Source: Gemmatimonadota bacterium (lineage in GTDB: Bacteria; Gemmatimonadota; Gemmatimonadetes; Longimicrobiales; RSA9). From it: DNA of 63,023 nt. Of this stretch, positions 36,001 through 42,000 are shown one piece after another. How positions within the stretch are numbered: the first letter of the stretch is position 1; every line of letters starts with the position of its first letter. The position numbers are program-made. The DNA is taken from positions 1 to 63,023 of the forward strand of contig JBBDRO010000100.1 of assembly GCA_040905425.1 (NCBI GenBank), given 5' to 3'.

Positions 36001-39000
36001 CGTCCTTGTCACCGCGCCCGCTGAGGCAGAGCACTACCGGTCCGCGCTCGGCCCAGGAGGACCCGTCCCGCAGCGCCCAGGCCACGGCGTGTGCGCTCTC
36101 CAGCGCCGCCAGGATCCCCTCGAGTCGGGCCAGCCTGTGCAGCGCCGCGAGGGCTTCGTCATCGGTGGCGCTCACGTACTGCGCGCGCCCGGTCTCCTTC
36201 AGGTGGGCATGCTCCGGACCCACGCCGGGATAGTCCAGCCCCGCGGAGATGGAGTGGGCCGGCGCCACCTGGCCGCCTTCGTCCTGGAGAAGGTAGCTGA
36301 GCGACCCGTGCAGGACACCCGGCGTGCCGCCCGTCAGGGACGCGGCGTGCTGCCCCGAAGCGAGCCCCCGCCCCGCGGCCTCCACACCGATGAGCGCAAC
36401 GTCTGTGTCCGGAACGAAGGCGTGGAAAATACCTATGGCGTTGGAACCACCGCCCACGCAGGCGACCACCGCCGCGGGCAACCGACCCTCCATCTCCTCC
36501 ACCTGCCGCCGCGTCTCGTCCCCGATGACCGCCTGCAGATCCCGCACGAGACGGGGGTAGGGATCGGGGCCTACGGCGGACCCGATAATATAGTGCGTGT
36601 CCGAAACGGTGGCCACCCAGTCCCGCATGGCCTCGTTGGTGGCATCCTTGAGGGTGCGGGTGCCGGAGGACACGGTGCGCACCTCGGCGCCCAGCAGCCG
36701 CATGCGGAAGACGTTCAACGCCTGCCGCCGGGCATCCACCTCCCCCATGTAGACCACGCACTCCATGCCGAACAGCGCCGCGGCCGTGGCGGTGGCCACG
36801 CCGTGCTGCCCCGCGCCGGTCTCCGCGATGATGCGCGTCTTGCCCATGCGCCGGGCCAGCAGGATCTGGCCCAGGCTGTTGTTGATCTTGTGGGCGCCGG
36901 TGTGGTTCAGGTCCTCCCGCTTGAGGTAGAGCGGCGCGCAGCCGGCCTCCGCCTCCAGCCGCCGGGCACGGTACAGCGGAGTGGGCCGGCCCACGTAGTC
37001 CTTGAGGAGGGCGTTCAGCTCCGCCCAGTAGGCGGGGTCCGCCGAGATCTTTCCCCACGCAGCCGCCAGCGCGTCCAGCGCAGCCACGAGCGTCTCGGGC
37101 ACGTAGCGCCCCCCGAAACCGCCGAAACGTCCCGTCATACGGCTCCCTCTGCATTGGTAAGCGACGTCCCCGCCGAACGCGCTCGCGTCACGAACGCGCG
37201 CATCCGGTCCGGGTCCTTGGCGCACGGCGCGCTCTCCACGCCCGAGCTCACGTCCACCACGTCGGGCGCCACGGCCGCCACGACCGCCGCCACGTTCGCC
37301 GGCGTCAGGCCGCCGGCGGCCACGAACCCCACGCCTGCCGGTAGGCCGTGCCGCACGCCCGCCGCGGCGGTCACCGGAAAGGGGGCGCCCGTGCCCCCCG
37401 CGGCCGCCGGATCGTAGCCGTCCACAAGCAGCGCGGCGGCCACGGCGCCGTAGGCGGCCACGCCCTCCTCGAGCTCCGCGACCGTGCGCGGCCGGAGCGC
37501 CTTCCATACCGCCCAGGGCCCCGCGCCTGCCAGCGCCGCCACCTGCGCCGCCGATTCCGCGCCGTGCAGCTGGAGCACGTCCAGGCGCAGCTCGCGCGCG
37601 GCCTCCAGCACGTCGGCCTCCGGCGCGTCCACGAAGACGCCCACGCGGCGGGCGCCGACCGCGGCGCCGTAGATGGCGGCCGCCTCCTCGAGCGTCCTGG
37701 AGCGGCGGTGGCCAGGGCTCAGGATGACCCCCACGTACGCCGCACCCGCCGCCACCGCCGCGGCGGCATCCGCCGGACGGCAGAGCCCACAGATCTTCAC
37801 CTGGGGGACGGCGGCCATGGGGGTACTCACGATGTCACGGGGCGGGGCGCGCGCGGGTGCCCCGTGAGCGCTCCGGCCGCCGCGCCGCCGTCCGCCGCCC
37901 GCACCAGCGATTCGCCCACGAGCACGGCGTCCACACCGGCGGCGCCCAGCCGCGCCACGTCCGCCGCGTCGCGGATGCCGCTCTCCGCCACCAGCAGTGT
38001 GCCCGGGGGCACCGCCTCGGCCAGCCGGATGGAGAGCCCCAGGTCGGTGGTGAAGGTGTCCAGGTCCCGGTTGTTCACCCCCACGAGCTCCGCACCCGCG
38101 CCGAGCGCCCGCTCCAGCTCCGGACCGTCATGGACCTCCACGAGCGCCGCCATGCCCAGCGTGCGCGCAAGGGCGTGCAGCTCGGCCAGTGCGTGGTCCT
38201 CCAGGATGCGCACGATGAGCAGCACGGCGTCGGCGCCCGCGGCGCGCGCCTCGTGCAGCTGCAGCGGCTCGATGATGAAGTCCTTACGCAGCACCGGCAG
38301 CGGCACGGCCGCGCGCACATCGATCAGATCCGCCAGGCCGCCGCCGAAGTACGCCGCGTCCGTGAGCACGCTCACGCATGCCGCCCCCGCGGCAAAGTAG
38401 CGCCGCGCCGTGGCGGCCGGATCCAGCTCCCGCGCCAGCCATCCCGCGGACGGTGACCGGCGCTTGACCTCGGCGATCAGCCGTACCTGTCCACCCGCCC
38501 GTAGTGCACTCGCGAAGTCGCGTGGGGGTCCGGCCGCGGCGGCCGCGGCGCGCAGTTCCGCCGGACGCGCGCGGAGCGCCTCCACTTCCTGCCGCTTGCT
38601 GGCCACGATGCGGTCGAGGATTCCTGACATCATCCTTGCGCTTCGGTTCGTCTTCGGGTACGTTGGTCTTCGGGAGGTGTTCGGCCAGGCGCCGGCCTCC
38701 CGTCACGCTGCGTCCCCGTCACGCCGAGGCCATCATGCCGTTGACCAAGCGTCAGAAGGAGATACTCGACTTCCTCGAGGGCTTCCTCGAGGACAACGGG
38801 TACCCCCCCAGCTTCGAGGAGATCGCCGGCCACTTCGGCTACACCTCGCTGGCCACCGTGCACGAGCACCTGGAAAATCTGCGCCGCAAGGGCTACATCC
38901 GGAAGAGCTACAACGCCAGCCGGTCCATCGAGCTGGTGCCCACCGAGATGCACATCGCGGCCGTGGAGCTCCCCCTGCTCGGGCTGGTCGCGGCCGGCGC

Positions 39001-42000
39001 GCCCATCGAGGCGGTCGAGCAGCAGGAGAGCGTGGCGGTTCCGGAGGACATGCTGGGACGGGGCGGCCGCCACTACGTCCTCCGCGTCACCGGCAACTCC
39101 ATGATCGACGAGCAGATCCGGGACGGTGACTACATCATCGTGGATTCCCGCAACACCGCCGACAACGGTGAGATGGTCGTTGCTCTGGTGGAGGGGGACT
39201 CGGCCACCGTCAAGAAGTTCTACCGGGAGGGTGACGGGCGTATTCGTCTGCAGCCCGCCAACACCACCATGGAGCCCATGTACTTCCCCTCGCACGACGT
39301 CACCGTGCAGGGGATCGTGGTGGGCGTGATCCGGAGGTACGGATGAACCTGTCCACGAAGCGCTGCTTTCTGGTGGGACGCCTCGAGCGAGGCGGGCGTG
39401 TGGTCGTGCTGCGGCCCTCCGAGCCCGCGCTGGCCGGTCCCTGGACGGTACGCGCGGTGGTAGCGCGGGCGTGATCACGCGGCTGGCGCCCGGGCGGCGG
39501 CGTCCCGCAGCCGCGCCAGCGCCGTCAGACCGTGGCCGGCGTCCAGCGCCGCCTCGGCCTGCTGCACCGCCGCGCCGAGCGTATCCGCCCGACCCGCCAC
39601 GTAGAGGGCGGCGCCGGCGTTCAGGGTGACGGCCGCCCGCGCCGCGCCGCCACGCTCACCGCCGAGCACACCCAGGACCACCGCCGCGTTCGCGGCCGGA
39701 TCTCCGCCCGCCAGTTCGTCCTCCCGGAAATCGTTCGTGTCCAGCAGATCGCCAGGCTCGAGGCGCTCGCGCCGCACCACGCCGTCCCGCAGATCCAGGA
39801 CGTCCGTGGCACCCAGCGGGCTGATCTCGTCCAGGCCGGGCTGCCCATGCACCACCAGCGCGCGCGCGTGGCCCAGCTCCCGGAGCGCACCGGCCACCAG
39901 CTCCAGCAGCGCCGGATCGGCCACCCCCACCACCTGGCGGGAAGCGTGGGCCGGATTCGTGAGCGGTCCCAGGATGTTCATGACCGTGCCGGCGCCCAGC
40001 TCCCGGCGCACCGGCGCCACGTGGCGCATGGCCGGATGCAGCAGCGGCGCGAACATGAACACGATGCCCGCCTCCTCCAGGACCTGCGCCATGCCGTCGG
40101 GCGTGAGTTCGATACGCACGCCGAGCTCCGCAAGCACGTCTGCGCTGCCGCACTTCGAGCTGAAGGAGCGGTTGCCGTGCTTGGCAATGCGCACGCCCGC
40201 GCCGGCGGCCAGCAGCGCGGCCGCCGTGGAGATGTTGAAGGTGGTGAGCGTACCGCCGCCCGTGCCGCAGGTATCCACCAGCTCGGCCGCGTGCGGCGCT
40301 TCCACGGGCACCATGGCCCGACGCAGCGCGCGCACCCCGCCCGCCACCTCGGCGGCCGTCTCACCCTTCACCCGCAGCGCCACCAGGAGAGCGGCCGTGA
40401 GGACCGGTGTGGCACGGCCCTCCATCACCGCCGAGAAAGCGCTCTCCGCCTCGTCGATGGTGAGGTCCTGGCCGCCGACCAGACGGACGATCAGATCTCC
40501 CAACGACGGGCCGGGTTCGGGCTCGGTTGCCATACGTTCCATGCGTACGAGAGGATGGAGTGCGGAGTATCGCGCGGCACCTTGCGTGGCCCTCCGGCCA
40601 CCTTACACTTGTGCCGGTGCCGACGTCGATTGAAGACGCATCCGGCTTTGCATACAGTAGCGCGGGGACGGGGCCTGCGGTACCCCCGGGGAGGGGACGT
40701 CGAGGATGAAGCGGATCGTGGTCACAGGCGCCGGCGGGCAGGTCGGCAGCGAACTGGTGCCCGCGCTGCGGGAGGCGTACGGGCAGGCGGCTGTCCTGGC
40801 CACGGACATCAGGCACGCACCACCTTCGCTGGTGGACCAGGGTCCCTGGGAGCAGGTGGATTGTACCGTGGCCGAGCAGGTGGCCGACGCGGTCCGCCGG
40901 CACCGGGCCGACACCGTCTTCCATCTGGCTGCCATCCTCTCCGCCACGGCCGAGAAGGACCCCGGGCGCGCCTACCGCATCAACATGGACGGCCTGTACA
41001 ACGTGCTGGAGGTGGCGCGCGAGGCGGGCTGCGCCGTCTTCACGCCCAGCTCCATTGCCGCCTTCGGCCCCTCCACACCGGCCGACCCCACTCCCCAGGA
41101 CACGCTGCAGCGCCCCACCAGCATGTACGGCGTCACCAAGGTGGCCGGCGAACTGCTGTGCGACTACTACCACCAGCGCTGGGGGGTGGACACGCGGGGT
41201 CTCCGCTATCCCGGCCTCATCTCCCACGTGGCCGAGCCCGGGGGCGGCACCACCGATTACGCCGTGGACATCTACTACCATGCCGTCCGTGGTCAGCCCT
41301 ACACCTGCTTCCTGGCCGGCGGGACCCAGCTGGACATGATGTACATGCCGGACGCCGTGCGCGCGGCCATGGAGGTGATGGAGGCGGACGGCGCCCGCCT
41401 GGTGCACCGCAACGCGTTCAACGTCACCGCTATGCAGTTGACACCCGAGCGCATGGCAGCGTCCATCCGCCAGGCCAAACCGGATTTCGAGATGCGCTAC
41501 GAAGTGGATCCGGTGCGCCAGCGTATTGCCGAGTCCTGGCCGCGCCGGATGGACGACCGTGCCGCGAGCGAGGAATGGGGCTGGGAGCCCGCGTGGGAGC
41601 TGGACGCCATGACCGACGACATGCTAGAGCAGCTCGGCCGCCGGTTGGCCGCCAGCCAGAACGTCTGAAGGAGAAGCCATGCCGCTCGATCGATTGAGCC
41701 ACGCGCTTGCGGACCACGTCACAACCCTCGAGGAAGCGGGCACCGCCAAGGGCGCGGAGGCGGTCGTAACGGAGGTCGTGCCCCCGCGCGGGGACCGCGG
41801 GACCCGCGTCCACCTGCGGGATGCCGGCGAGCGGGAATTCATCCGCATGAATTCCAACTCCTACCTGGGGCTCTCCCTGCACGCGGAGATCATCGCGGCG
41901 GAGGCGGAAGCGGCCGAGCGCTTCGGCGCTGGCCCGGGCGCCGTCCGCTTCATCAGCGGCACGTACGCTCCCCATGTGGCGTTGGAGCGGGCGCTGGCGG

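Follow-up and report, generated by a model that had tools for sequence, protein, structure and literature searches.

TTCGG-N6-TTCGG as the predicted LexA operator of class Gemmatimonadetes, and covariation of its half-sites with recognition-helix residues of LexA

How the binding site of LexA changes across bacteria is a standing question, and the lexA locus of one Gemmatimonadota bacterium, a little-studied inhabitant of soil and water, poses it in a concrete form: two copies of the direct repeat TTCGG-N6-TTCGG precede the gene. Is this repeat the operator of LexA itself, which genes would it control, and how does it relate to the LexA boxes of other phyla? A genome-wide survey's note on this DNA had read the repeat as the mark of a LexA regulon, and had reported two boxes before lexA, both of which we find as exact matches.

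The lexA promoter and its boxes

Table 1. Features of the lexA locus
Feature	Position	Strand	Evidence
trpC (IGPS), divergent from lexA	37827..38633	-	Pfam IGPS
Inferred -35 hexamer TTGCGC, lexA promoter	38636..38641	+	conservation in relatives
LexA box 1, TTCGG-N6-TTCGG (predicted)	38642-38657	+	exact match; 25.8 bits with relatives-only matrix
Inferred -10 hexamer TACGTT, lexA promoter	38659..38664	+	conservation in relatives
LexA box 2, TTCGG-N6-TTCGG (predicted), over inferred transcription start	38669-38684	+	exact match; 17.2 bits
lexA, 203 aa	38735..39346	+	TIGR00498, 216.8 bits vs cut-off 110.95
Codons for residues 38-45, where recognition helix 3 begins	38846..38869	+	alignment to E. 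coli LexA
trpD, convergent with lexA	39475..40533	-	Pfam Glycos_transf_3

The lexA gene lies antisense between trpD and trpC, an arrangement shared by 17 of 30 long loci of the class, and the start codon of trpC is 8 bp from box 1 (Table 1). The LexA protein appears intact, with the cleavage site Ala87-Gly88 and the catalytic residues Ser122 and Lys160 recognized by alignment to E. coli LexA and by motif positions. Within the window, meaning the whole 63-kb stretch of DNA analyzed, the two boxes are the only matches at up to one mismatch, a count that is not above chance given an average of 3.5 in shuffled sequences. Two or more boxes precede lexA in 46 of 56 loci of the class and a single box in the other 10.

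Box 1 occupies 16 of the 17 bp that separate the inferred -35 and -10 hexamers. Because a consensus promoter scanner, at its threshold, found no lexA promoter site and listed neither hexamer, the -35 hexamer was inferred from conservation. Among 55 lexA loci of relatives, the T, T, and G of the -35 hexamer are kept ahead of box 1 at 92, 97, and 88%, and the first T, the A, and the last T of the -10 hexamer follow the box at 85, 92, and 94%, with the conserved TTG and TAnnnT flanks standing 17 bp apart.

Predicted regulon in the genome and the class

The exact word occurs 14 times in the genome, 13 times in intergenic DNA, while 88% of the genome is coding by our own gene calls. A scoring matrix trained on relatives alone (122 distinct sites before lexA or recA, none of them in this genome) gave as many matches as previously noted: 11 scored at least 20 bits, and all 11 were intergenic. 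At 18 bits, 12 of 13 matches were intergenic, whereas altering the spacer to 3, 4, 5, 7, 8, or 9 nucleotides left 1 to 7 matches, of which 0 to 2 were intergenic. The matches of at least 20 bits precede lexA, recA, an imuA-like gene, an imuB-like gene, dnaE2, a radical SAM gene, one gyrA, and four other genes (VOC, SLT, mraZ, and DNA methylase). None of these four is a classic SOS gene, and the sites of three are poorly conserved. The names given earlier to the boxed genes hold for recA, gyrA, the radical SAM gene, which is of the PA0069 family, and dnaE2, whose error-prone type is indicated by a profile match over the cut-off; the imuB-like gene has a weak IMS_C match, and the imuA-like gene matches NF033429 (E 1.3e-8) under the profile's cut-off. 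At lexA, imuA, imuB, and dnaE2, the box lies in the inferred -35/-10 spacer, and at recA and gyrA it is reversed. The two copies of uvrA, uvrB, ruvA, recN, dinB, and their operon heads have no box in this genome, with best scores of 1.8 or lower.

Conservation in the class, which had been claimed for lexA and recA, extends to two more gene families. The box stands ahead of lexA in 56 of 56 loci and ahead of recA in 28 of 30 at up to one mismatch (coding controls, 1 of 30), and it also precedes the PA0069-family radical SAM gene in 24 of 25 loci and the imuA-like gene in 8 of 9 (controls, 0). It is reversed in 21 of the 25 radical SAM loci, so that both orientations occur, as for a bound protein. 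In five family-level genomes taken together, the exact pattern matches 78 times and its reversed form 14 times, and the boxed genes among those opened include dinB, uvrB, ssb, a DinB-family gene, and purD-mutM. The conserved core of the predicted regulon is lexA, recA, imuA, imuB, dnaE2, and the radical SAM gene of the PA0069 family, and it is centered on error-prone bypass. Lineage-limited membership is plausible for one gyrA, purD-mutM, and mraZ.

Some earlier assignments need narrowing. The gyrA box is present in this genome but in only 6 of 24 gyrA loci, which makes its membership lineage-limited, and the mraZ, SLT, and VOC matches, which score 20 bits or more here, are barely conserved elsewhere. 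The SLT box recurs in 1 of 12 relatives' loci, and the VOC box is present in 1 of 17 loci, the one in this genome; mraZ was rejected as a core member, with a box at 16 bits in 1 of 25 loci. Two further genomes of the family have exact boxes ahead of the mraZ promoter, and others have degenerate boxes there. The designation as the box of Gemmatimonadota holds for the class Gemmatimonadetes but not for the phylum, as 13 of 14 lexA loci in the outlying families (Glassbacteria and others) carry TTCGC-type boxes. In those families, TTCGC boxes are hardly enriched genome-wide (44 vs 41), and all 15 of the recA loci lacked one within 250 bp of the gene. On viral contigs, no box was called at 15 loci taken from 80, of which 11 could be used. 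A double-box scan of named genomes found at least 35 lexA-preceding cases among the 120 matches listed, 34 in Gemmatimonadota and 1 unclassified; the matches listed outside Gemmatimonadota were mostly plain 11-bp tandem repeats, and because such repeats dominate, the scan cannot give the full taxonomic range.

The literature searched yielded no LexA box for Gemmatimonadota, which is weak evidence of absence. For a class that is abundant but has barely been cultured, the present analysis offers a predicted SOS operator and a first predicted regulon, which in this genome would be built on error-prone bypass without nucleotide-excision genes.

LexA residues and half-site bases

Residues S39, N41, A42, and E45 of E. 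coli LexA read operator bases (PMC11442139), and by alignment Asn41 and Glu45 correspond to Ala40 and Glu44 of the LexA studied here. In several bacterial groups, residue 44 tracks the fifth base of the half-site, Glu, Asp, and Gln occurring with G and Lys, Arg, and Asn with C, and residue 40 tracks the fourth base. With Glu at residue 44, 206 of 208 half-sites have G as their fifth base; with Lys there, 39 of 42 have C. When bases 4 and 5 were left free, Glu, Asp, or Gln went with G in 62 of 63 cases, Lys or Arg with C in 27 of 27, and Asn40 with A in 6 of 6, these counts coming from 96 calls at 181 loci, 85 of which gave none, under calling rules fixed only after the promoters had been seen. 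Held-out metagenome loci matched the residue-base prediction in 41 of 43 calls. The exceptions are Gln with C (L307 and L619), Lys with G (L554), Lys with mixed halves (L282 and L280), and Ala40 with A (L566).

On the tree, 64 of 65 rows are concordant for residue 44 and the fifth base. Residue 44 changes 5 to 8 times over 400 bootstrap trees, and none of 8415 null simulations was equally concordant; independent pairs on well-supported branches number only two (one in another run), and the sign test (p 0.5) is underpowered and not significant.

We lean, with moderate confidence, toward a two-residue code in helix 3 that sets the SOS half-site across phyla within a 16-bp frame (5+6+5), the halves being direct or inverted. 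In E. coli numbering, residue 41 would specify the fourth base (A for Asn; G for Ala, Ser, or Gly), and residue 45 would specify the fifth (G for Glu, Asp, or Gln; C for Lys, Arg, or Asn). All four combinations occur in nature: TTCGG in Gemmatimonadetes and Patescibacteria, TTCGC in Glassbacteria and Acidobacteriota, TTCAC in some Acidobacteriota and in palindromes of Patescibacteria, and TTCAG or TACAG in Myxococcota and E. coli. No such code for LexA was found in the literature searched, again weak evidence of absence. The natural Glu/Lys switches paired with operator G/C switches make the change of LexA sites testable, and if the code is true, a LexA sequence could serve to predict the SOS box of an uncultured phylum, and boxes could turn over by single substitutions, with no need for gene duplication.

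Nature of the repeat and relation to known LexA boxes

Covariation of the fifth base with residue 44 across several bacterial groups links the word to the LexA protein. Binding by another regulator, such as the second LexA-like protein or a WYL-type activator that runs a damage response independent of LexA, is unlikely: a second LexA-like gene is present here and in several class genomes, and a direct repeat is an uncommon site for a dimer of two-fold symmetry, but the operator bases change with helix residues of the canonical LexA and a box in the inferred promoter spacer suits a repressor. Moreover, the second LexA-like genes have a different helix, no box of their own in any of 6 loci (best score -0.1 in this genome, in line with the survey's note), and, as judged by eye, no Ala-Gly cleavage site.

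It is more improbable still that the repeat is a promoter element for an alternative sigma factor. The fixed place of box 1 between conserved TTG and TA motifs would agree with that, but the TTG and TAnnnT flanks are already hexamers of the housekeeping type, the second copy lies at a variable distance, and the box stands in the opposite orientation at recA, at gyrA, and at the majority of radical SAM genes. As for coincidence, or a side effect of tandem repeats with an 11-bp period, the count in the window, not above that of shuffled sequences, and the tandem repeats that make up most double-box matches listed outside Gemmatimonadota are what it would predict, yet it is refuted by conservation at 56 of 56 lexA loci and in three other gene families, and spacer specificity and intergenic enrichment also speak against it, leaving it a negligible probability. 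In class Gemmatimonadetes, the repeat very probably serves as operator for the canonical LexA repressor, at a probability of roughly nine in ten judged from sequence comparison; this reading, and with it the LexA regulon proposed earlier, is strengthened by conservation before four kinds of SOS gene, by the inferred repressor position, and by the residue-base covariation.

If the repeat is the LexA operator, a LexA dimer would occupy the 16-bp site head to tail, with one helix 3 on each TTCGG half, where Glu44 might read the C that pairs with G at the fifth position, and the small residue at 40 would go with G at the fourth base. Bound in the -35/-10 spacer (lexA, imuA, imuB, and dnaE2) or near the start, the dimer would block RNA polymerase; upon DNA damage, RecA filaments would bring about self-cleavage of LexA at Ala87-Gly88 and free the promoters.

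A direct-repeat LexA box in Patescibacteria was reportedly described by Sanchez-Osuna, Barbe and Erill in 2017 (Environ Microbiol 19:3465). The Patescibacteria lexA promoters sampled here also carry TTCGG-N6-TTCGG, placed likewise between -35 and -10, and the helix type matches that of Gemmatimonadetes, though in another phylum and with sites more often degenerate; among loci of the Glu type, the box was found in 13 of 14 and the fifth base is G in 24 of 26 half-sites. The sampled word is probably identical with the published consensus, which was reportedly defined by EMSA. The TTCGG word is not peculiar to Gemmatimonadota, as it also precedes lexA in Patescibacteria. For Acidobacterium capsulatum, the LexA box is said to have been published by Mazon et al. 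in 2006 as GTTC-N7-GTTC. Acidobacteriota LexAs share the helix type and one tree region with the class, and their promoters have a 16-bp direct repeat in the same slot as the Gemmatimonadetes box. Those sampled, A. capsulatum not among them, mostly combine Lys44 with TTCGC boxes (box in 17 of 18 Lys-type loci; fifth base C in 27 of 34).

The alphaproteobacterial LexA box is given as GTTC-N7-GTTC in PMC8565304, PMC3323433, and PMC9578287, and it resembles the Gemmatimonadetes box in being a direct repeat with an 11-bp period and a TTC-N8-TTC core. Identity of the two was rejected: G precedes both halves in only 4 of 104 class boxes, and helix 3 is of a different type in all 26 alphaproteobacterial loci, 22 of which carry exact GTTC-N7-GTTC and none the TTCGG box at up to one mismatch. 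The natural Glu/Lys switches and the G/C switches paired with them suggest a single family of direct-repeat boxes in Gemmatimonadota, Acidobacteriota, and Patescibacteria, apart from the alphaproteobacterial box. Alphaproteobacteria also stand outside the 16-bp frame of the two-residue code.

The boxes of E. coli, TACTG(TA)5CAGTA, and B. subtilis, CGAAC-N4-GTTCG (both from PMC9578287), share the 5+6+5 geometry, but they are palindromic, whereas the left half of the Gemmatimonadetes box is a direct copy. The E. coli half-site TACAG fits the proposed code, with Asn41 and A, Glu45 and G, and the TTCG core of the Gemmatimonadetes box equals the right half of the B. subtilis box. In Balneolaeota, according to PMC7739468, a direct-repeat LexA motif governs lexA, recA, genes for translesion polymerases, and a radical SAM gene; the repeat form and this set of genes resemble the box and predicted regulon of Gemmatimonadetes, but the Balneolaeota motif differs from the TTCGG box in sequence, being AT-rich.

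The lexA promoter and its boxes

The direct repeat TTCGG-N6-TTCGG is, on well-supported grounds, predicted to be a genuine LexA operator. Two boxes before lexA had been claimed in the genome-wide survey's note, and both were recovered as exact copies 5' of the gene. Allowing up to one mismatch, nothing else in the window matches, and the count alone is no higher than in shuffles. By alignment and motif positions, the encoded LexA retains the cleavage site Ala87-Gly88, Ser122 and Lys160. Conserved TTG and TAnnnT elements, 17 bp apart, flank box 1 in the lexA loci of the class, suggesting that the lexA promoter lies around this box, and the promoter scanner gave no listing. 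Among the matches listed, the nearest named LexA belongs to a Longimicrobiaceae record (71.8%), and 34 of the 35 named double boxes before lexA carry Gemmatimonadota titles. The trp genes enclose lexA in antisense, so that transcription reading through from trpD would cross lexA antisense; trpC starts 8 bp from box 1. Of 30 long loci examined in the class, 17 have trpC divergent from lexA and trpD convergent to it.

Boxes, box-bearing genes and associated features. Undesignated positions are those of the window; G000 is the genome under study, C numbers its contigs and L numbers sampled loci.
Feature	Position	Remark
LexA box 1	38642-38657	exact TTCGG-N6-TTCGG
LexA box 2	38669-38684	exact TTCGG-N6-TTCGG
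lexA	38735-39346	TIGR00498, 216.8 bits; both boxes upstream
trp genes around lexA	35975-40533	trpD, lexA (reversed), trpC, trpF, trpB
Genes adjoining exact or matrix boxes		recA, gyrA, PA0069-family radical SAM (intein-bearing), imuB-like, dnaE2, imuA-like, purD-mutM, mraZ, SLT gene, glyoxalase-family gene, DNA methylase
Radical SAM gene	L010:1295-3355 (G000:C63)	LAGLIDADG intein-like insert
imuA-like	G000:C8:60657	one boxed promoter
imuB-like	G000:C114:2609	one boxed promoter
dnaE2	G000:C114:11393	one boxed promoter
Large cytosine methylase	L004:893-3303	box of 25.6 bits (G000:C19:6787-6802) immediately 5' of ribosome site
Glyoxalase/bleomycin-resistance family gene	L006 (G000:C48:3870-3891)	box of 29.5 bits within near-consensus promoter
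gyrA, two genes	G000:C51:17814-20387; G000:C39:28526-31105	55% identity
Acylphosphatase gene	G000:C19:26267, 26385	weak upstream boxes
Second LexA-like gene	L002 (G000:C64:20923-21540)	without box

Boxed genes in the genome and in the class

Exact matches number 14 in the genome, and 13 of them are intergenic by our own gene calls (88% coding). The earlier count of 11 matches above 20 bits, all intergenic, did not depend on the genome's own sites, as a matrix trained solely on relatives (122 distinct sites before lexA or recA) returned 11 matches of at least 20 bits, 11/11 intergenic; with altered spacer lengths the same matrix gave 1-7 matches at 18 bits, mostly coding. Conservation before lexA and recA across the class also held. 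The box precedes lexA in 56/56 loci, the studied one included, and two or more boxes stand in 46 of these; the loci represent all ten families and were taken from 120 genomes of the class that returned a lexA match. Before recA it occurs at up to one mismatch in 28/30 loci (27/29 without the single locus of the unpublished genome G145) and exactly in 17, against 1/30 coding controls.

At a threshold of 16 bits, with short, partial and unpublished loci left out and controls at 0, the box was found in 24/25 radical SAM, 8/9 imuA-like, 6/24 gyrA and 1/25 mraZ loci. The inclusion of gyrA stands for the studied genome, where the site is present, but only for those 6 of the class loci; the box is reversed every time, and all 6 fall among the 16 best matches to the boxed paralogue and none among the eight second copies. 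The SLT gene is boxed in 1/12 loci and the VOC (glyoxalase-family) gene in 1/17, its box not being kept in the 16 relatives' loci. Matrix scoring found no box upstream of uvrA, uvrB, ruvA, recN or dinB in the studied genome, nor before the second lexA-like gene, as had been noted; single relatives carry boxes upstream of dinB, uvrB, ssb, DinB-family genes and purD-mutM.

Several of these genes have features of their own. The imuA-like, imuB-like and dnaE2 genes are scattered, and imuA and imuB seem leaderless, with ATG about 10 nt past the inferred -10. Each gyrA has a GyrA-box-like motif and neither adjoins gyrB. The boxed methylase has a helix-turn-helix-like N-terminal part amid atypical codon use, and the acylphosphatase homologue in a relative (G371, L773) has an exact box. 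In five mraZ promoters (L462, L473, L789, L481, L483) a box or box-like site lies 0-30 bp upstream of the conserved -35 of the division cluster, and the GTGGG repeats downstream resemble MraZ's own sites. The second LexA-like family (L002, L258-L262) has a different helix and lacks a box; judged by eye, its members are also without the Ala-Gly cleavage site and have Arg in place of the catalytic Lys.

LexA residues and operator bases

A LexA dimer is predicted to sit head to tail on the 16-bp repeat, to repress from a position over the promoter spacer or start, and to be released through RecA-triggered self-cleavage, a reading to which we assign a probability of roughly nine in ten. Residues 44 and 40 of the window LexA align with E. 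coli Glu45 and Asn41, which contact operator bases (PMC11442139; bioRxiv 2020.07.14.201889). In the class, all 56 proteins have Glu44 and the fifth base is G in 206/208 half-sites; in the outlying families of the phylum, all 14 have Lys44, and the fifth base is C in 39/42 and G in none. The C opposite G would donate a bond to the acidic residue, and the G opposite C would receive one from lysine. In a wider survey that located sites by their promoter and imposed nothing on bases 4 and 5 (96/181 loci gave a call), Glu, Asp or Gln accompanied G at base 5 in 62/63 cases and Lys or Arg accompanied C in 27/27; at base 4, Asn40 went with A in 6/6 and other residues with G in 87/90. Palindromic boxes follow the same rule. 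Of 29 Myxococcota loci, 10 gave a call; in all of these the sequence is T[TA]CAG and the residues are Asn and Asp.

On a LexA tree of 66 rows built with the helix columns excluded, which is weak, coming from a 200-residue protein, 64/65 scored rows are concordant, over seven residue and eight base changes; the residue changes 5-8 times in bootstrap trees (400 of 1000). None of 8415 null simulations with an independent base reached this concordance (best 57), and the sign test was not significant because only two independent pairs lie on well-supported branches. The calling rules post-date the first data, about half of the loci yield no call and a few rows disagree; metagenome loci collected after the rules were fixed, the majority from clades sampled before, gave calls from 43 of 73 usable loci, 41 fitting at base 5. 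Recognition by a different regulator, a role as a sigma element, or chance might each be proposed for the repeat, but all three leave unexplained both its occurrence in either orientation and the covariation with LexA residues. This residue-base code is the part that a specialist would wish to test. Four class loci with a single box (L061, L062, L066, L070; families f9 and f4) have Glu44 and TTCGG, yet their LexA groups with Lys-type Acidobacteriota and Glassbacteria, likely through a separate switch or gene transfer.

Taxonomic range and known boxes

The TTCGG box is a trait of the class, not of the phylum: its designation as the SOS box of Gemmatimonadota holds for Gemmatimonadetes, but TTCGC-type boxes occupy the same promoter slot in 13/14 lexA loci of three outlying families, Candidatus Glassbacteria among them. 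No box was found within 250 bp of recA in 15 outlying-family loci; one member of these families has a TTCGC box upstream of dinB. A literature search, which misses key subscription papers, found no published LexA box for the class, and Gemmatimonadota are absent from the accessible portions of the compilations in PMC8565304, PMC3323433 and PMC9578287. Direct-repeat LexA motifs have more than one origin, several being recognised according to PMC7739468. The Gemmatimonadetes box is predicted to work like any SOS box. Identity with the alphaproteobacterial GTTC-N7-GTTC was rejected, as only 4/104 class boxes match it, and 22 of 26 Alphaproteobacteria lexA loci carry that motif and none the TTCGG box. 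The nearest known case is the direct-repeat box of Patescibacteria, reportedly defined by experiment in a 2017 study that noted a likeness to Acidobacteria LexA. Outside the phylum, TTCGG boxes occur in Patescibacteria lexA promoters, and Acidobacteriota mostly have TTCGC.
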